From the UHGV virus genome UHGV-0152919: a DNA stretch of 39,527 nucleotides; one strand, given 5' to 3'. This document shows, piece after piece, positions 427 to 39,281 of this stretch. Below the pieces are notes generated by a model. The model saw only the letters and a list, made by a program, of their open reading frames with translations. It had not been told where the DNA came from and made no database searches. Position numbers and translations under genes: made by a program. Within the stretch, counting starts at the first letter, position 1, and each line of letters opens with the position of its first letter. This DNA comes from a virus.

Positions 427-915
427 CTACTCACCTCCGTTGATGCGAATGCCTGTTGCAATGCTGTTTATGATGCTGTCAGTGCATGGGGTAGAAAGCT
501 GGGCATCTCCAGCAATTTTCATGACATCAACATCTGCATATCGAATACCGAGGTGTATCAGACCGGCTATACCTGACTTAAGCCGAGCATTTTCCATAAA
601 CAGATCCTTTGCCCGCTGTTTTTCTGCCTCAAGCTCAACGCGCAACTTCCCTACCGTTAGCGCAATATCCTCGTTCTCCTGGTCGCGTGATTTGATGTAT
701 TGCTGGTTCCTTTCCCGTTCATCCAGTAGTGCCAGCACGGTTTCTGGTCCGGCCAGAAATTTGAAGGCGTTGAGCGCATCAATATCCACACCGTAATCTT
801 TAAGTTCCTGTTCACTTAACAAATCATCATCAGCTGGCAACATTAACAGGCGTTCCATTGCTGGAATTGCACGTTCCGCCGCCTCACGCAGTGCCTGGTA
901 ATTAATTTCGCTCAC
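427..915 (-). CDS. hypothetical coiled-coil protein, possibly Ead/Ea22-like; GTG start
   Basis: ORF track; likely GTG start at 915 (VSEINYQALRE...) preceded by AAGGAGG; N-terminal QALRE motif recalls Ead/Ea22-like prophage proteins (from memory). Confidence 0.5.
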   Translation of the reverse strand: MSEINYQALREAAERAIPAMERLLMLPADDDLLSEQELKDYGVDIDALNAFKFLAGPETVLALLDERERNQQYIKSRDQENEDIALTVGKLRVELEAEKQRAKDLFMENARLKSGIAGLIHLGIRYADVDVMKIAGDAQLSTPCTDSIINSIATGIRINGGE

Positions 916-1151
916 TGGTTGCCTCCTTTGCGGAGTTGCGCTGCGATGCACGAAAAAAAAGACTCCCGAGTGTGACAGTTAAGAGCTGGTGCGAACGCCG
1001 CGTTAAGAACGGCGGAATCACAGCCGTCATCAATATAGAGCGCAATTTTTTTCTCCAGGCGCGCTTTGGCTTCCTGCAACTGCATACCCCGGCACGCACG
1101 CGGGATATAATCAGCAATTTGAGCGATAGCTTTTTCGTTCTGTTTAAACAT
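912..1151 (-). CDS. small hypothetical protein (79 aa)
   Basis: ORF track; stop overlaps the start of the downstream gene, suggesting coupling. Confidence 0.4.
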   Translation of the reverse strand: MFKQNEKAIAQIADYIPRACRGMQLQEAKARLEKKIALYIDDGCDSAVLNAAFAPALNCHTRESFFSCIAAQLRKGGNQ

Positions 1152-1347
1152 GCTTCACCTCGATAGGCTTGATGGTGTCTAACAGCAGTCGGCGGCGCGT
1201 ATTTTCTGCAAAATGGCGGCGTCCAGTTTCTTTGTGGTAAAACTCGTTTTTGCCAACGACCCACATCCGCTCTGTTTGGTGCAGTTTTTTTACCTTCGGG
1301 CCATCTTTGGTGATCACGGTACCGGTATGGGTTTTTACGATTGTCAT
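1144..1347 (-). CDS. small hypothetical protein (67 aa)
   Basis: ORF track; start overlaps the stop of the upstream PAPS-reductase-like gene (ATGA-type overlap). Confidence 0.4.
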   Translation of the reverse strand: MTIVKTHTGTVITKDGPKVKKLHQTERMWVVGKNEFYHKETGRRHFAENTRRRLLLDTIKPIEVKHV

Positions 1348-2222
1348 GCCACTACCTCTTCGAATTTCAACTCCAATTGGTCACCCCAGATTTCACATGA
1401 TTCGGAACACGAACCAGTATCAAACCGCTTGGCCTGCACCATCGCCTGATACAAATTTCTGTAGTCGCTGTCGGCATACATTCTGGCAATCCCGTCAAGC
1501 GTCAGGTGACCACGGTACATAACGTCTTTACCTGTTCTGCGATGACCATCCCTGACGTGTTTGCCTGTAACCAGTTCATTAAAAACCCGCATCAGACCTG
1601 GTTCGTCTTTACATGCAAGCCCCAGCTTTTGCGTTGACTTTTTGATGCAAAAAACACAGTTCCCGAGGTGCTCCGGTATTTGCAAATCAAAAGGTTGTTT
1701 TCGCCACCACCGGATAACATCCGACTTATCAAAATCTGACAGTTCGGCAAGATACCGGACGTCCGGTTTCGGTTTCAGCCTACGGGGTTCGTCCGCACGA
1801 ATACCGAGCCATGTGATGTAATTCCCTCGCCCAAAATGGTCATCGCAATATTTCGTGAAAGGGGTGAGTTTTAGCCTGTCGGTACAGAACGCGCCGCCGA
1901 TGTATGGCGTACCGTACTTTTTAACCATGTCCATAAACGGTTTAAGCACCGGCATTCGCGTCTGAATATCCTTTGGTTCCCATTCCGTATAACCATTTGG
2001 CTGCCCAAGTTCTGGATTTATATCGACCTGCAACACCGTTAGCGGTACGTTCCAGAACTTCACAACCTCACGAATAAAGCGATACGTCAGAGGATGTTCA
2101 CAGCCGGTATCCATAAAAATGAAATGGACGCTAGCGCCAGCTTTTCGCTGTGCTTCCATCAGATGAACGAGATAAGCCGATGTTCGTCCACCTGAAAAGC
2201 TGACGACTTGATGCATACTCAC
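1344..2222 (-). CDS. PAPS reductase-like PP-loop ATP pyrophosphatase family protein
   Basis: N-terminal SFSGGRTS PP-loop motif typical of the PAPS reductase/CysH-like superfamily; 292 aa. Confidence 0.7.
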   Translation of the reverse strand: MSMHQVVSFSGGRTSAYLVHLMEAQRKAGASVHFIFMDTGCEHPLTYRFIREVVKFWNVPLTVLQVDINPELGQPNGYTEWEPKDIQTRMPVLKPFMDMVKKYGTPYIGGAFCTDRLKLTPFTKYCDDHFGRGNYITWLGIRADEPRRLKPKPDVRYLAELSDFDKSDVIRWWRKQPFDLQIPEHLGNCVFCIKKSTQKLGLACKDEPGLMRVFNELVTGKHVRDGHRRTGKDVMYRGHLTLDGIARMYADSDYRNLYQAMVQAKRFDTGSCSESCEIWGDQLELKFEEVVA

Positions 2223-2225
2223 GGT

Positions 2226-2954
2226 TTATTCCTGAATGCGCTTAAACTCGATTACCCACACCCAGGGATTAGCGTTCCAGCTTTCTTCACCATAGATGGA
2301 TTCCCACAGGCGCTGGAACGCAACCTTGGCCATTGCGAAATCCCCCTTGGGAGTAAGGAATGTTCCCGGGTGATCAGGAAGCAAACTTCCAGCAGGCGGA
2401 ACGCCCTCAGCCCTTGCATCGCATTCGCTGATATCGTTCAACCGTTCAACGCGCACGTTGGTAATTTCCAACAGAATGCGTGATGCCCATCGCGGCATGT
2501 GAATTGATGGACGCCACCCACCATCAAACTTTTCATTCACAGTGTGAGGTTTCCAGTCGGCATCATCGGGTATCGACCATAAGCCGTAATCACCAGGTTT
2601 TTGCTCGCAACTGGCCCGATAAATCCTTGCTGCGTTCTTCTCATCGCCACGACAAAGGTTGTCGTTCCAGTCCACACTGCAACCATCCTCATTGCCTAAT
2701 ATCGCCCATGTTTCACGAACCCAAATTCGATCGCCGACGATACCAAATGGGCAATTGAAAACACTGCTTACACCATCAGCCCCGTACCACTGAAAACCTG
2801 CACCAATTTTTCTAACCATCACTGGTGCTTCTGGACCAACTTCCGCAGGCTGATTTTTCATTATCCGCCGCGTCTGCGTTTTCCTTCCTTCGAGGATGGC
2901 CCGGACCATCTCATCGTTGAAAATCATGCCGCGCTCTTTCACTTCGCCTTTCAT
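2226..2954 (-). CDS. conserved hypothetical phage protein (242 aa)
   Basis: ORF track; ATG at 2954 preceded by AAGGGGGA; no confident domain call. Confidence 0.55.
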   Translation of the reverse strand: MKGEVKERGMIFNDEMVRAILEGRKTQTRRIMKNQPAEVGPEAPVMVRKIGAGFQWYGADGVSSVFNCPFGIVGDRIWVRETWAILGNEDGCSVDWNDNLCRGDEKNAARIYRASCEQKPGDYGLWSIPDDADWKPHTVNEKFDGGWRPSIHMPRWASRILLEITNVRVERLNDISECDARAEGVPPAGSLLPDHPGTFLTPKGDFAMAKVAFQRLWESIYGEESWNANPWVWVIEFKRIQE

Positions 2955-2963
2955 GCATCCCCC

Positions 2964-3050
2964 TTACCCATGTGCGACGATGCCGCCAAAAGTGATAGAG
3001 AACAGCCAGAAATAGATCGCGGCCATAATGATTTTGAATGCCGTGTTCAT
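2964..3050 (-). CDS. micro-ORF, 28-aa hydrophobic peptide (MNTAFKIIMAAIYFWLFSITFGGIVAHG)
   Basis: Manual translation; AGGAG 8 nt upstream of ATG; below the 60-aa cutoff of the ORF track; single predicted transmembrane segment. Confidence 0.35.
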   Translation of the reverse strand: MNTAFKIIMAAIYFWLFSITFGGIVAHG

Positions 3051-3132
3051 ATTTTCAGCTCCTGTGATTGATTGGATACATGCCGCGCCTTGCGGCATGT
3101 TTTTATTTTCACTTTCTCTGTTTTAAAAATCA

Positions 3133-3149
3133 AGATTTATTAGAGCAAT
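3133..3149 (-). promoter_or_regulatory. C1-repressor operator-like site (16/17 match to ATTGCTCTAATAAATTT on minus strand)
   Basis: Plus strand reads agatttattagagcaat; overlaps the stop codon of the upstream gene. Confidence 0.5.
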
Positions 3150-3655
3150 TATTGTTGGTGGAGAAGCGCGTTTTCATACTCCCTGACCATTAACGTAAGT
3201 ACGCCGTGACTCCTGAAAACACGCGCCACTTCAATCTTATCTTCCAGCGCGAACGCAATTTTACTTAGACCAATTTTCTTCAGGAGATCAATCTTTGCTG
3301 GACCGTCATTTCTGTCATCGGTGGCAGGACGCATAGATAGCAAAGGCTCAGCCCCGTTTGTTACGTACTTCCGCAGCCAGGCTCGTGTTTTATCCCTTGC
3401 GATCTCACAGCGCCCGGTTACAAACCAGACCGTGTAAACGTTAAATAACTGGCGCACCATATCAATAACTGGAGTGATGGGAGTATCGGTGTCACAGGCG
3501 AGATTAAACTCGTTCCAGTCCTTTGTTAATGCACCTTTACCTGGTGGCGGAAGCAAATGCAGTCTGTCTTCAGTTGCCTCTGATATTGTTCCATCAATAT
3601 CGACTATGACGATATACGGACGTTCCTGGTGTGCATGTTTATTGAAAATACTCAA
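3149..3655 (-). CDS. HAD-superfamily phosphatase resembling the 3'-phosphatase domain of T4 polynucleotide kinase/phosphatase
   Basis: DIDGT (DxDGT) motif I near N-terminus; VTGR and DDR motifs in the same order as the T4 Pnkp C-terminal domain (from memory). Confidence 0.6.
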   Translation of the reverse strand: MSIFNKHAHQERPYIVIVDIDGTISEATEDRLHLLPPPGKGALTKDWNEFNLACDTDTPITPVIDMVRQLFNVYTVWFVTGRCEIARDKTRAWLRKYVTNGAEPLLSMRPATDDRNDGPAKIDLLKKIGLSKIAFALEDKIEVARVFRSHGVLTLMVREYENALLHQQ

Positions 3656-3727
3656 ATGCCCTCCTCATTGGACGAAAAAAATGCTGGTGGGCGCACTCCA
3701 CCAGCATTAAAAGTGACACTGTAACTG

Positions 3728-4990
3728 TCAGCGAACGTAAATAGTGCCGCCGTTCTCTTTTTCCCATGCATCGCTACGTGCATAGCAAACATCGAGAAGT
3801 CTTCTTGCCGCTGTTTCCTCTAAACCCAATTCGACAACCAACTGCTCATGACGGCGGGTAACCACATCAAACAGGGTATGCAGCCCTTTAGCTGCCAGAT
3901 CATCAATAAATCCCGGTTCGAACGGCAGCTCTGCCTCTGCCAACATAACCTCTTGCGCCCACTCAACTCGACGGACCAGTTCCGGGCGGCGGCTTTCCAT
4001 CTCTTTACAGATCAATTCATGGAAGAACTCTACCCAACCTTCCGGCTGGAACTCGCGGAAAATGGCCAACGGCTGGAAGTTTGGCATCAACCATTCGTTG
4101 ATCCGGATATCAATGGCATAGCCCATGTCGCAGCAGAACTGATAAGCAAAGTCCAGCTTAGAAACGATATAAGGACGCTCGTTATTGAACTCTTTAGGCG
4201 ATGAGATCCCATAAGCCAGGAGGCGCGGGAAGAAGGAGATTTGCCCTAACGTCGGATGAAGTTTGCTTGCAGGGAAACGGCGCTCAGTAATGCCATACAT
4301 TTCCTTCTTGAGCGTCGCAAATTTGGCATTCTCATTAACCAGCGCGGTAACCTCTGCTTTTTTATTAGCAAATGCCACGCGCGCCTCGCTTGCATCTTTA
4401 ATAGTTTTTTTGAGCTGTTGGTTAAGGTCGGCGACCTGCTTACGCAGTTCCTGTCGCTCGCTTTTAGCTTTGTTATAGCGTTTCTCAAGGTTAAAAGGAT
4501 CAAGTTTCATGATCTCTTTATATTGAGATTTTAGCGTTGAAATCTGTGAGTTCCGCAGTTCAACCATCGCGGTCATTTCATTGAGTTTTGTTTCCAGCTC
4601 AATGCTTATACGTTCGGCATTATCAGCACGCTGGTTGGCGTCATGCGTCGCATCGTCGATCGCGTCCTGTTGCTGGCGTTTCAAATGTTCAATTTCCAGC
4701 TGAAGCTCTTCAATTTCTTTACCCTTCAGACCGAGATCCAACTGCATATTTTCAGCTGCATCTACCAGGGAGTTATGGCTATCAGCTTCTGCGTTATAAA
4801 CATCAATAAGCTGTGCGTGAAGCATCTCCGCTGACTGAACCGCATTATCAAAAAAACGCGCTGTGAGGTCATCACAACTAACGCGGCGTTGCGCGGCCCG
4901 GATGTTCTGGATAATGGCCGGGATACCGGCATTCAGGACGTCAGGGATAGATACATTTTCGATTGATTGGTTTTGTGCTGAAGTGATCAT
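3728..4990 (-). CDS. hypothetical protein with long central coiled coil (420 aa)
   Basis: ORF track; heptad-rich E/K/Q/L segment in the N-terminal half; no catalytic motif recognised. Confidence 0.6.
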   Translation of the reverse strand: MITSAQNQSIENVSIPDVLNAGIPAIIQNIRAAQRRVSCDDLTARFFDNAVQSAEMLHAQLIDVYNAEADSHNSLVDAAENMQLDLGLKGKEIEELQLEIEHLKRQQQDAIDDATHDANQRADNAERISIELETKLNEMTAMVELRNSQISTLKSQYKEIMKLDPFNLEKRYNKAKSERQELRKQVADLNQQLKKTIKDASEARVAFANKKAEVTALVNENAKFATLKKEMYGITERRFPASKLHPTLGQISFFPRLLAYGISSPKEFNNERPYIVSKLDFAYQFCCDMGYAIDIRINEWLMPNFQPLAIFREFQPEGWVEFFHELICKEMESRRPELVRRVEWAQEVMLAEAELPFEPGFIDDLAAKGLHTLFDVVTRRHEQLVVELGLEETAARRLLDVCYARSDAWEKENGGTIYVR

Positions 4991-4991
4991 T

Positions 4992-5210
4992 TCAAAGTTC
5001 CGTATTAGCTTGTGCTTCGGTCATTTTTCCTAAGTATGAAGGAGGAAGGACTACGCAATTTGTATCCAGTCCCTCACCTATGGCAGCCTGTAAAATTCTG
5101 GCTAAGGTGAGTCTCTTGTTGCGATACCTGGTGATGACATGCCTGATACCGCCGGTCGGCGTAACAAAGGCGATCAGCCAGTAGTGATATTTCCGTCGGA
5201 ATGGCCACAT
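4992..5210 (-). CDS. small hypothetical protein (72 aa)
   Basis: ORF track; sits immediately downstream (minus strand) of the operator/terminator/operator element at 5225-5290. Confidence 0.4.
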   Translation of the reverse strand: MWPFRRKYHYWLIAFVTPTGGIRHVITRYRNKRLTLARILQAAIGEGLDTNCVVLPPSYLGKMTEAQANTEL

Positions 5211-5224
5211 AGTGCACCTTGTAG

Positions 5225-5241
5225 ATTGCTCTAATAAAAAA
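5225..5241 (+). promoter_or_regulatory. C1 operator-like site (attgctctaataaaaaa, 14/17)
   Basis: Motif match on plus strand; paired with an inverted copy at 5274-5290. Confidence 0.45.
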
Positions 5242-5266
5242 CGTGATGAGTGTACATCACGTTTTA
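5236..5266 (-). terminator. intrinsic terminator-like hairpin (8-bp stem acgtgatg/catcacgt) with T-run on the minus strand
   Basis: Inverted repeat 5241-5248/5255-5262 flanked by an A-run (plus strand), i.e. a T-run on the minus strand; downstream of gene 5292-5993. Confidence 0.45.
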
Positions 5267-5273
5267 AAAATAT

Positions 5274-5290
5274 GGAATTATTAGAGCAAT
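5274..5290 (-). promoter_or_regulatory. C1 operator-like site (minus strand attgctctaataattcc, 14/17)
   Basis: Motif match; abuts the stop codon of gene 5292-5993. Confidence 0.45.
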
Positions 5291-5291
5291 A

Positions 5292-5993
5292 TTATTCTGA
5301 TTCTCGCTCAAAAAATGAGCTGATAAGGGGAAGCCAATCCTCTGACACTTCGCGAGGTCGCGGTTTGCCGTGGAAAAAGATTATTCGGCAGTCTTTTGGT
5401 AATGCCCCATTCCCCCTGGAGTAACGCGCGCTCGCATATTTTGAACCAGGTTCCACAACATCGGCCTTGTAACTTACAAACCATCCTGGATACAGATCCT
5501 GAAATGCTGGTGTATCATCGCCCATAACCTTTCGTAAGAACCCCTGATCACCCCAGCATTCAGTAGTAACACAACGAGCAATCCAACCTTCCGGATCTTG
5601 CCAGAATGCACTCCAGATATGCGCTTTTACACTATTTGGTATCCACAGGGCACCGCTGCCACGATATTGTGGATGGTAAAAATCCCTAAGCATGGTGAAG
5701 CTGGTTGGTGGATGCTCTAGGATTGGGCGTATATCACCGGCAATAACCGTGTCCAAATCCAGATAGAACAGATCATCGGTTATATCCGGTCGGAACAACT
5801 CGATTTTCGCCCACCAGCCACGGCACTTTTGCCACTGGTTGATCAATGGGACAACTTTGACGCCAGGTACATGTAAACGCTTCAGGTCTGTCAGGCAAAT
5901 AATTTCATAGCCTTTTGGCAGTTGATTAACCAGCCACTGCACATCGGAAGCGTTATAGTCACCACCAGAGCGAAAAACTAAAGCAATCTTCAT
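5292..5993 (-). CDS. putative nucleotide-sugar (glycosyl)transferase-like protein
   Basis: 233 aa; YLDLDTV DxD-like motif and N-terminal Rossmann-like beta-alpha pattern; assignment tentative. Confidence 0.5.
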
Positions 5994-6682
5994 GCTGCAC
6001 CATCACCTTTCACTTTCATCAATGTCAGGTTTCCGCAAAATACGGCACCAGTGTCGATATACTGCTGATTCCAGAATGTCTTCGGGCTTTTCACCGGAGT
6101 GTGACCAAAGATAAAACGATCTGCGCCCGAAATTTCGCCACCAATATCATCCATCGAATCACTGATACGCTCGCGCGCCCAGACAACGTTGAAAAGCGGC
6201 ACCTCCTTACCGAATTGGTATTCATTATCCGGATAGTCGGCATGGGCTATAACGATAGTTTCTTGCCCCGTGTTCAACTCAATGATATAGGGCAGACGCT
6301 TTACCAGCTCCACCAGCGCCCAGGCTAATATTTCCTGATCAGTGTCCAGCATGAAGAACCATTGTCCGCCATTCATTAGCCAGTTATTCACGTTGCCATC
6401 TGGACTTAACGCATCAATCATCAGCCGCTCATGGTTCCCCATCACTGCCCTGAACCAGGGCATCTGCAATAGTTCCAGACATTCGACATTTTCAGTACCG
6501 CGATCGATAAGGTCGCCGACCGATATCAGTAAATCCTGCGCCGGGTCAAAATCCACACGATGGAGTTCGGACATCAGTCTGGTGTAGCAACCATGCAGAT
6601 CACCAACAACCCAGACATTCCTGTATTTGGTACCGTCGATACGGTGATAAATTGTGGGTGCCATCATGTATTCTTCAGCCAT
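5990..6682 (-). CDS. ppp: serine/threonine protein phosphatase, lambda-PPase type (P1 Ppp-like)
   Basis: GDLHG, GDLIDRG and GNHE metallophosphatase motifs; near-collinear with the lambda phosphatase sequence from memory ([15 protein letters not shown]...). Confidence 0.9.
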
Positions 6683-7290
6683 TCTTTAAGAGTCATCTGC
6701 GGAATACCTCCCATTTTCCCGCATGAAACAACGTCAATCTGTTCACGCGCAGACTGGAATAACAAAGGCAGGTGACTTAGATTTTTTGGCGTGCCGCCGG
6801 AGTGAACGCGTAGTTCTTGCGTAGCGTCAACGCCCACCAGAGCTACATGTTTGAATCCGATATGGAAAGCCAGGTTCAGAGCACCATATGCACTATTGCC
6901 GCTGGCAATTTCATTCTCATCTTCGCAAAGGCCGAAATGTGCGGACCAGCGCCACGCCCACCACTCGGGAGAATTCGTATTTTTTGGCTCCATGCCGCGT
7001 TCAGCCACACGACGGAAGCACAGAACGCCATCTCTGACTTCACGTTCTTTAACATCGGGTAGTGCCATGCAATAACAAACACCACGGCGACGGCGGCCAC
7101 GACCAACGCGCCGCATATTGTCTGGGGATGGATCAAGGGTGAAAAAATAAGAAGCGCGGTTAAGCCAGTCGATGGCCCCATTGACCGCTATAATCGGCAC
7201 TCCGCGCGGCGCAACAAAGTTTGCGGCGCTTGGGCCACTGCCGACGATAATAACGCGATCACTGCCTCTAAATTTATTCTTGGGAAACAT
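6664..7290 (-). CDS. Rossmann-like GSGPS-motif protein, paralog of the next gene (possibly MptE/DUF115-like)
   Basis: IIVGSGPS...IIAVN...[11 protein letters not shown]...VALVGVD motifs shared with the 7188-7850 product. Confidence 0.5.
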
Positions 7291-7850
7291 TGAATTGCAC
7301 TGCTCCTACTTGCATTCAAAATATGTAAATCTGCGTGTTTTTTGCGGGTATCCAGGAACTGCTGTTGCCATTTTGAAATAGACACCTGCGTTGGATTCCG
7401 TAGTGCTTGAGGGTGCGCGCCATGCCAATGAAGGCCGTTTTGCAGAGAACAGTCATAGCCGACTAATACCACTACTTCAGCCCCTGATTCAGCAGCCAGA
7501 CTGATAGCCTGCGCGCCGCTATTTACCCCTTCCGCCGGTCCACAATATCGCCTGTACTCCAACGAAAATGATTTCGCCGCCGCCAGGTTGGCTGTCACTT
7601 TGCGGAATCTCCCTCCCGGTATGGTGGATCCGTATTGCTTCCACCATGACAAATCACCGGCGTATAAGGCATAAATGTCATCGAACATCTGCCAGGAATT
7701 GTTAACCGCGATGATTGAACAGCCAGTTTTTTCTATAGCAGCACAGTCCTCACGAGTGAGTGACGGTCCGCTACCGACACAAAAAACAGTCCTAGTCGCC
7801 CTGGGTGGTATGTTCATTCTCAGCTGCAAATTCAGCCTCCAGGCGAGCAT
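7188..7850 (-). CDS. Rossmann-like GSGPS-motif protein, paralog of the previous gene
   Basis: FCVGSGPS...IIAVN...NSGAQAISLAA...VVLVGYD; start may be an internal Met; overlaps the downstream gene by ~100 nt. Confidence 0.5.
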   Translation of the reverse strand: MLAWRLNLQLRMNIPPRATRTVFCVGSGPSLTREDCAAIEKTGCSIIAVNNSWQMFDDIYALYAGDLSWWKQYGSTIPGGRFRKVTANLAAAKSFSLEYRRYCGPAEGVNSGAQAISLAAESGAEVVVLVGYDCSLQNGLHWHGAHPQALRNPTQVSISKWQQQFLDTRKKHADLHILNASRSSAIQCFPRINLEAVIALLSSAVAQAPQTLLRRAECRL

Positions 7851-37594: not shown

Positions 37595-37611
37595 AAATTT
37601 ATTAGAGCAAA
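37595..37611 (-). promoter_or_regulatory. C1 operator-like site (16/17) upstream of kilA-repL (Op53-like)
   Basis: Plus strand aaatttattagagcaaa in the ant-kilA intergenic region. Confidence 0.65.
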
Positions 37612-39264: not shown

Positions 39265-39281
39265 AAATTTATTAGAGCATT
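39265..39281 (-). promoter_or_regulatory. C1 operator-like site (16/17) upstream of the c4-icd-ant operon (Op51-like)
   Basis: Plus strand aaatttattagagcatt. Confidence 0.65.

Follow-up and report, generated by a model that had tools for sequence, protein, structure and literature searches.

The 39,527-nucleotide stretch of the virus genome UHGV-0152919 analyzed here (the window) belongs to a Punavirus, a P1-like phage or plasmid prophage. At 1344-2222 its minus strand carries an uninterrupted open reading frame (ORF) for a PP-loop protein with the fold of phosphoadenosine phosphosulfate (PAPS) reductases, which, judged by its sequence, is an ortholog of phage lambda NinC. We tentatively propose that NinC is an early-expressed PP-loop enzyme of the Fe-S or persulfide type that acts on DNA as a counter-defense, a reading to which we give a little less than an even chance. 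Likeness to the phosphorothioation enzymes DndC and SspD, a relative with an anti-Dnd phenotype and recurrent methyltransferase partners together yield a simple, directly testable hypothesis for a gene that is among the few in lambda whose function is still to be assigned. In lambda, ninC is dispensable (PMC10695390), NinC is counted among the poorly understood, uncharacterized proteins of this phage (PMC3224144), and functional studies of NinC were not found in the literature searched.

The product of the window gene is 292 amino acids long if translated from the GTG at 2222, and 290 from the in-frame ATG at 2216, the start assigned by the NCBI annotation pipeline (PGAP) to the identical gene in plasmid CP088429.1. 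It is 79% identical to lambda NinC (orf-290, NP_040635) over 290 of 290 residues without gaps, and it matches phrog_424 ('phosphoadenosine phosphosulfate reductase') end to end (E 1e-92), a family that PHROG places in the category 'moron, auxiliary metabolic gene.' Homologs numbered 5,063 proteins at E<=1e-5 and 1,598 clusters of 50% identity at E<=1e-3, and this is therefore a real conserved gene rather than a chance ORF. Both the gene and its arrangement are already known: it is an ordinary, widespread and annotated NinC homolog. The stretch from pmgT to ead recurs at 100% identity in several IncY P1-like plasmids and is covered to at least 80% by 25 plasmid records, the plasmid copies being annotated 'phosphoadenosine phosphosulfate reductase family protein.' At a query coverage of at least 80%, the ninC allele was found in 423 of 5,426 complete E. 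coli genomes (about 8%), at 516 chromosomal and 77 plasmid places, including Shiga toxin (Stx)-converting phages and P1-like plasmid prophages.

The conserved motifs of the family, counted over 108 cluster representatives of 29-54% identity, are those of a nucleotide-binding enzyme with a cysteine-rich site, and all of them (SxSGGRTS, TGxE, C113...K118, RxDE, GNCxxCxKK and a C-x3-C tail) occur in the window protein, where their coordinates, like those of the gene, are on the minus strand. The translated PP-loop, SFSGGRTS (residues 8-15; 2178-2201), is the predicted ATP/pyrophosphate-binding loop; S10, G12 and S15 are each kept in at least 104 representatives and G11 in 100. The DTGxE motif (residues 38-42; 2097-2111), which alignments to CysH and adenosine phosphosulfate (APS) reductase indicate to be common to PAPS and APS reductases, keeps T39, G40 and E42 in at least 102. 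The CTDRLK motif (C113-K118; 1869-1886) is identical to that of DndC, and its C113, present in 107 representatives, matches a [4Fe-4S] ligand of DndC and APS reductase, while K118 is present in all 108. Residues R142, D144 and E145 of the RADE motif (1788-1799), each kept in at least 107, align with GVRRDES of DndC. Within GNCVFCIKK (G187-K195; 1638-1664), whose CxxC cysteines are predicted metal or Fe-S ligands, G187, N188, C189 and K195 are invariant and C192 is found in 107; by motif order, outside the confident profile alignment, this CxxC appears equivalent in position to that of APS reductase and DndC. Finally, the acidic cysteine tail GSCSESCE (C272 and C276; 1392-1415; isoelectric point 4.05) is a candidate source of a fourth cluster ligand and/or a persulfide carrier. 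Among sequences that extend this far, C272 is kept in 91 of 93 cases and C276 in all 95.

Five cysteines are thus family-wide (C113, C189, C192, C272 and C276); C41, C126 and C204 are not conserved. The near-invariance of the nucleotide and cysteine motifs argues for an active enzyme with a metal or persulfide site. In an AlphaFold2 model the confidence measure pLDDT is 86.8 overall and falls below 50 from residue 267, and the C-terminal tail is accordingly predicted to be flexible; structural neighbors of the model include four Fe-S enzymes. An earlier note on this DNA, made from the letters alone, had recognized a PP-loop enzyme at this position. That identification is borne out by the SFSGGRTS loop and by the match to Pfam PF01507 (PAPS_reduct; 37.5 bits against a gathering cut-off of 22.5), which covers residues 6-72 only. 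Its further suggestion of a repurposed adenylyl-transfer or thiolation enzyme agrees with the motifs and relatives, which point to an enzyme of the adenylation/sulfur-transfer type acting on nucleic acid.

SspD and DndC are the characterized families nearest to NinC. Among models of defense-system proteins, SspD ranks first (E 1.4e-13, 49 bits, 122 of 277 model positions), scoring above BrxP and DndC (PADLOC DndC, E 4.6e-4), and ten distant family members of 31-37% identity match SspD over positions of about 3-208 of 277 with E values of 1e-12 to 1e-17. By these scores NinC is a sister family of SspD and not a member of it. Comparison of the NinC-family profile with a genuine DndC, encoded in a dndC-dndD cluster of Rhizobium, pairs KYGTPYIGGAFCTDRLKLTPF with KGYPSPNMTMRWCTDRLKIQP of DndC and places FCTDRLK on WCTDRLK and GIRADE on GVRRDES; the hhalign probability is 96.6% (E 6.7e-10). 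The C-terminal half of the global hhalign alignment is unreliable, pairing the cysteine tail with the loop cysteine of DndC and skipping the CxxC, and it was not used to assign ligands. In DndC of E. coli B7A, Cys146 and the CxxC formed by Cys280 and Cys283 are reported to be [4Fe-4S] ligands shared with APS reductase, and a fourth cysteine lies on a flexible loop (PMC12193691).

A single member of the NinC family has been associated with escape from a defense system. The window protein is 56% identical, from residue 3 to 282 and through the GSCSESCE tail, to residues 1-280 of p0018 of Vibrio phage 44E38.1 (P0075 among the homologs), which is annotated 'Dam methyltransferase with PAPS reductase domain.' A sensitive sister phage that had been given p0018 and its neighbor p0019 was able to infect Vibrio crassostreae whose resistance is Dnd-dependent, and the authors credit the acquired PAPS domain at least in part (Piel et al., bioRxiv 10.1101/2021.05.05.442762). 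A survey of Aca-regulated operons treats phage PAPS reductases as DndC/SspD homologs and candidate genes against phosphorothioate-based defense (PMC13551039). Furthermore, there is a statistical association between Ssp-positive genomes and an Acinetobacter baumannii prophage with an isolated 'sspD' gene; this gene matches the SspD profile weakly (E 1.3e-14), much as NinC does here, and its authors read it as a way to mark phage DNA (PMC12421847). Papers on the anti-Dnd kinase JSS1_004 and on a PAPS reductase as a NAP-based defense effector were also considered and were judged irrelevant.

DNA methyltransferases are recurrent partners of the family. The NinC domain is fused to Dam (PF05869) either N-terminally (P0123, P0126) or C-terminally (P0125, P0127, P0155, P0075), and in P0128 to a D12-class adenine methyltransferase. 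A 968-residue protein joins a C5-cytosine methyltransferase, NinC and Dam (3582-6488 (+) of locus L062, IMG/VR UViG_2850135801_000009) and is a 'polyvalent' DNA-modification enzyme. Among 80 viral loci there are nine Dam fusions, four loci with Dam immediately upstream and three with a same-strand Dam gene within about 2 kb; in an E. coli prophage (L011) Dam is encoded separately, and its gene and the start of ninC share 4 nt. A ParB fusion, considered for the 160-residue N-terminal extension of phrog_424, was rejected, the extensions found being Dam domains. The window has no Dam gene adjoining ninC. Its P1 Dmt homolog of 754 amino acids lies 17 kb away (18964-21228, minus strand) and combines an N-terminal C5-cytosine with a C-terminal D12-class N6-adenine methyltransferase. 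The domain types of the triple fusion are therefore also represented in the window, in unfused form. On plasmids, a NinC-like gene occurs in about 141 Acinetobacter records, for example at 5001-5774 (+) of locus L095 (A. baumannii plasmid NZ_CP096719.1; 33% identity over residues 1-208). In the MOBF conjugative plasmids of this genus it stands among genes for H-NS, a thermonuclease and DUF2786, with an N-6 DNA methylase two genes away. This cluster resembles a plasmid anti-defense region.

The proposed sequence of events begins with a lambdoid early-region cassette that brought ninC into a P1-like phage, in the C1-repressed pmgT operon, such that expression would follow derepression or infection and would not occur in the lysogen. 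NinC would bind ATP and coordinate a [4Fe-4S] cluster or metal through C113, C189, C192 and one tail cysteine, while sulfur from the host cysteine desulfurase IscS would be accepted as a persulfide on the mobile cysteine tail. Replicating phage DNA would then be given a phosphorothioate-type 'self' mark in the manner of SspD and DndC, by NinC alone, with a DNA methyltransferase providing contact with DNA, or via host Dnd or Ssp partners. The marked phage would escape phosphorothioate-dependent restriction by DndFGH, SspE and similar systems, and ninC would be dispensable in hosts that lack such defenses, which would fit the dispensability of ninC in lambda and a family distribution that is patchy and mosaic. 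A more specific version, in which NinC-family proteins are minimal single-polypeptide DNA sulfur-modification enzymes for which host IscS and a DNA-binding partner suffice to place a phosphorothioate or another sulfur mark on phage DNA, the partner being a fused, adjacent or separate methyltransferase such as Dam or Dmt, strikes us as rather doubtful.

Several observations weigh against a DNA-directed counter-defense enzyme. The family PP-loop carries a threonine where classical PP-loop ATPases have a Mg-binding aspartate (threonine or serine in all 105 of the 108 representatives that could be aligned there), and NinC is structurally as close to tRNA-modifying PP-loop enzymes as to APS reductase. 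The curated DndC, SspD and CysH models all score far below family level. When the neighboring ORFs of the 80 viral loci were clustered and the commonest families annotated, no DndD, DndE, SspB, SspC, desulfurase or sulfur carrier was found near ninC; the neighbor families were repressor, cII, O/P/DnaB, NinB, NinF, NinG, Q and lysis genes. Likewise, dndB, dndD, dndE and dndA or iscS are absent from the neighborhood of ninC in the window, where the neighbors are pmgT, small ORFs and ead. Lambda DNA is not known to contain phosphorothioates, although this phage has been used very widely, and this counts against NinC modifying DNA autonomously in E. coli K-12. The biochemical activity, cofactor or DNA product of any NinC-family protein was not found in the literature searched. 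Finally, the Vibrio transfer joined p0018 to p0019, and p0018 itself carries a Dam domain, leaving the PAPS-like domain alone as an unproven cause (bioRxiv 10.1101/2021.05.05.442762).

The names given to the family in databases, its PHROG category and the fact that APS and PAPS reductases are its closest matches among solved structures would suit an auxiliary metabolic gene, a true PAPS or APS reductase that would raise sulfate assimilation by the infected host, but this reading is largely refuted and scarcely tenable. No EC[GA][LIV]H (ECGLH-type) motif occurs anywhere in the protein, which ends in GSCSESCEIWGDQLELKFEEVVA; the CysH equivalog PRK02090, with a cut-off of 154 bits, gives 21.9 and aligns with residues 5-82 only; and alignments to solved PAPS and APS reductases reach residues of about 5-99 at most, so that similarity to CysH is limited to some 70-100 N-terminal residues. 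The TM-score to CysH is 0.38 of the query, with about 165 of 292 residues superposing, the PP-loop is rich in glycine, as in ATP pyrophosphatases, and is not the degenerate loop of CysH, and the genomic company of ninC consists of genes for DNA replication, recombination and methylation. A housekeeping CysH, which the earlier note had named as the finding that would overturn its view, was thereby ruled out. Of the PP-loop families that it had proposed to separate by profile search, QueC was excluded as well as CysH, scoring clearly below the other PP-loop enzymes in structure comparison and showing neither a match above the curated QueC threshold nor queD, queE, folE or dpdA neighbors, while the DndC-like assignment held in part: the CTDRLK motif is shared, the DndC cut-off was missed, and the nearest families are SspD and DndC. 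A further alternative is that NinC is a decoy, a DndC/SspD look-alike that poisons host phosphorothioation or restriction complexes, or soaks up persulfide sulfur, and modifies no phage nucleic acid. The missing DndC and SspD partner proteins, the homology to the subunit by which the targeted systems modify DNA and the replacement of the PP-loop aspartate by threonine would all suit a decoy. We nevertheless consider it very unlikely, because nucleotide-binding and cysteine motifs that are near-invariant down to about 29% identity follow the pattern of an enzyme rather than of a binding mimic, because blocking host modification would expose host DNA rather than protect phage DNA, and because fusion to active-looking methyltransferases suggests DNA-directed catalysis.

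In structure comparison other PP-loop enzymes come close to the solved PAPS and APS reductases, with scores of 12.2 for the [4Fe-4S] enzyme LarE, 12.0 for TilS, 11.9 for NcsA and 11.6 for TtuA, but only 8.1 for QueC; solved structures of DndC or SspD were not among the PDB structure matches. NinC might modify RNA, most likely tRNA, by thiolation or a lysidine-like reaction, and so tune translation or shield tRNAs from anticodon nucleases, a role that might suit a gene standing beside Pap in a P1-like phage. We judge this distinctly unlikely: the adjacency to Pap is a product of the cassette insertion and is not seen in lambda or the Stx phages, the tRNA-binding and Zn-finger domains of TtuA, NcsA and TilS are lacking, the curated TilS model yields 16 bits where 606 are required, the fusion and neighbor partners are DNA methyltransferases, and the top sequence matches are SspD and DndC. 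The substrate could instead be DNA and the chemistry other than phosphorothioation, for instance thiolation or amination of an adenylated base carbonyl, with the fused adenine or cytosine methyltransferases taking part, and the protection would then be against restriction in general and not against Dnd or Ssp in particular. This is unlikely, in that the nearest relatives by sequence are phosphorothioation enzymes, with which the CTDRLK signature is also shared, and escape from Dnd is the one phenotype tied to the family; moreover, a fusion may merely join two independent anti-restriction modules.

The position of ninC in the window suggests when it would be expressed. A P1 C1-repressor operator with one mismatch, ATTGCTCTAATAAATCT, lies on the minus strand at 3133-3149, upstream of pmgT and in the position of P1 OpmgT/Op88. 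Nine matches to the P1 C1 operator consensus ATTGCTCTAATAAATTT with at most three mismatches occur in the window against 0.22 expected by chance, at 3133-3149, 5225-5241, 5274-5290, 8898-8914, 18946-18973, 22479-22495, 37595-37611 and 39265-39281, and their spread fits a P1-type immunity circuit across the window. No minus-strand terminator-like site was found between the operator at 3133-3149 and ninC. With an operator upstream and no such site in between, ninC is therefore predicted to be silent in the prophage and to be made upon derepression or infection.

A recombination event accounts for this arrangement. From 2260 to 7000, spanning pmgT, pap, pmgS, pmgR, pmgQ and ppp, the window is 98.5% identical to P1, whereas 619-2213 matches lambdoid Stx-converting phages (PA2/Oslovirus type) at about 92.6%; the junction of backbone and cassette thus falls at 2214-2259 (no strand assigned), and the left limit of Stx-phage similarity, at about 619, lies within the Ead/Ea22-like gene. 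In the Stx phages, the string of PAPS reductase, 67-residue and 79-residue proteins and ead belongs to the early-left operon, downstream of the recombination genes. Comparison with the window showed that ninC is absent from reference P1. The first gene of the operon in the window, the pmgT homolog (2226-2954, minus strand; phrog_874, E 6.8e-95), encodes a product 99% identical to P1 PmgT through 232 residues and then continues for 10 unrelated codons, giving 242 amino acids instead of the 309 in P1; PmgT had no match in Pfam, NCBIfam or PADLOC. The P1 backbone and the lambdoid cassette are therefore joined inside the 3' end of pmgT, just past codon 232, and the cassette, in the order ninC-orf67-orf79-ead downstream of pmgT, replaced pmgU, pmgV and the genes that follow. 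The earlier note had placed ninC at the distal end of an enzyme island. P1 enzyme genes do lie upstream, where pmgT is accompanied by pap (with a PNKP-type phosphatase domain), pmgS, pmgQ and ppp (a metallophosphatase), but ninC is not indigenous to them and belongs to the recombined cassette.

The two tiny coupled ORFs that the same note saw after the enzyme are indeed present, each start overlapping the preceding stop. The start of orf67 (phrog_1226, no assigned function; 1144-1347, minus strand) overlaps the ninC stop as ATGA, and that of orf79 (phrog_1344, no assigned function; 912-1151, minus strand) overlaps the orf67 stop by 8 nt, ATGTTTAA. The Ead/Ea22-like gene (427-915, minus strand; Pfam Ead_Ea22, E 9.6e-33) follows with a GTG start at 915 that overlaps the orf79 stop as GTGA. 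Neither small ORF matched anything in Pfam, NCBIfam or PADLOC. That they are obligatory partners of ninC was rejected, because they stand next to it in only 8 of the 80 viral loci, all near-identical alleles, and because ead directly follows ninC elsewhere (L013, L014 and L027). They are cassette passengers and not conserved partners.

Other genes of the window and of related loci were noted in passing. The Pap homolog (3149-3655, minus strand) has a PNKP HAD phosphatase domain (Pfam E 7.8e-12) and matches phrog_415 'polynucleotide kinase'; it is an enzyme of the nucleic-acid end-healing type and not a generic acid phosphatase. The PmgP and PmgO homologs (6664-7290 and 7188-7850, both minus strand) give weak, sub-threshold matches to an MptE-like domain, P1 PmgO being named an alpha-2,3-sialyltransferase by RefSeq, and a 339-residue ORF that adjoins the Dmt homolog (21225-22244, minus strand) has a full-length RdgC domain (E 8.5e-98). 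In about ten Stx-type loci, such as L023 (4411-5010 (+)), the gene directly upstream of ninC matches phrog_318 'deoxyribonucleoside 5'-monophosphate phosphatase,' a type of gene absent from the window. In some lambdoid prophages an HNH endonuclease gene inserted after ninB stands directly before ninC (5402-6004 (+) in L007 and L009), and in L011 such a gene (4950-5477 (+)) precedes the Dam gene. The DnaB helicase contains a LAGLIDADG (intein-like) insert in L007 (2526-4919 (+)) and L063 (1831-4224 (+)). On a Moritella-like contig, a 548-residue protein with a weak DUF4942 match (L012, 8563-10209 (+)) lies near a NinC homolog of 55% identity amid genes that lack annotation, a non-lambdoid context that could be informative.

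If the more doubtful single-polypeptide version is true, lambda, Stx and P1-like phages could carry an overlooked, conditional DNA modification that disarms immunity of the Dnd or Ssp type. If the counter-defense hypothesis holds, an old orphan gene would be explained, and a compact module would be defined that could help in engineering phages past phosphorothioate-based barriers. That PAPS-reductase-like genes of phages act against phosphorothioate systems is, as a general idea, already published, and the gain here is one of consolidation rather than discovery.

The features of NinC can be set against those of known systems. Unlike assimilatory PAPS/APS reductase (CysH; PDB 6vpu, 1sur, 2goy), NinC has neither ECGLH nor a CC pair, and it has a canonical glycine-rich PP-loop and about 100 extra C-terminal residues. 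Relative to the CC...CxxC and ECGLH of APS reductase, NinC has the single C113 in place of CC, retains CxxC and is without ECGLH. SspD, of the single-strand DNA phosphorothioation system SspABCD, is of similar size and shares the PAPS-reductase fold, but NinC scores only about 50-60 bits, far below the level of a true SspD, has no sspA, sspB, sspC or sspE neighbors, and possesses a family-specific C-terminal helical region and cysteine tail. DndC, the [4Fe-4S] ATP pyrophosphatase of the double-strand DNA phosphorothioation system DndABCDE, shares with NinC the (F/W)CTDRLK and G-x-R-x-DE motifs, one cysteine plus a CxxC, and a further cysteine on a flexible element; the two differ in length (380-540 amino acids for DndC, about 290 for NinC) and in the PP-loop (SGGKDS and SGGRTS, respectively), and NinC scores 17.8 bits with TIGR03183, for which the cut-off is 290.4.

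Within its own family, the window protein shares the PP-loop, CTDRLK, CxxC and GSCSESCE tail with p0018, which continues into a C-terminal Dam domain, whereas the window protein stands alone and ends after the cysteine tail. With lambda NinC it shares its size, its motifs and the character of an accessory early gene. In lambda, however, ninC lies in the pR/nin region after ninB, and the nin region directly after ninB is the usual site in lambdoid prophages, while in the window and in the PA2-type Stx phages the gene belongs to an ea-type early-left cassette. In the window this ea-type cassette has been moved into a P1-like phage, behind pmgT and under C1 control.

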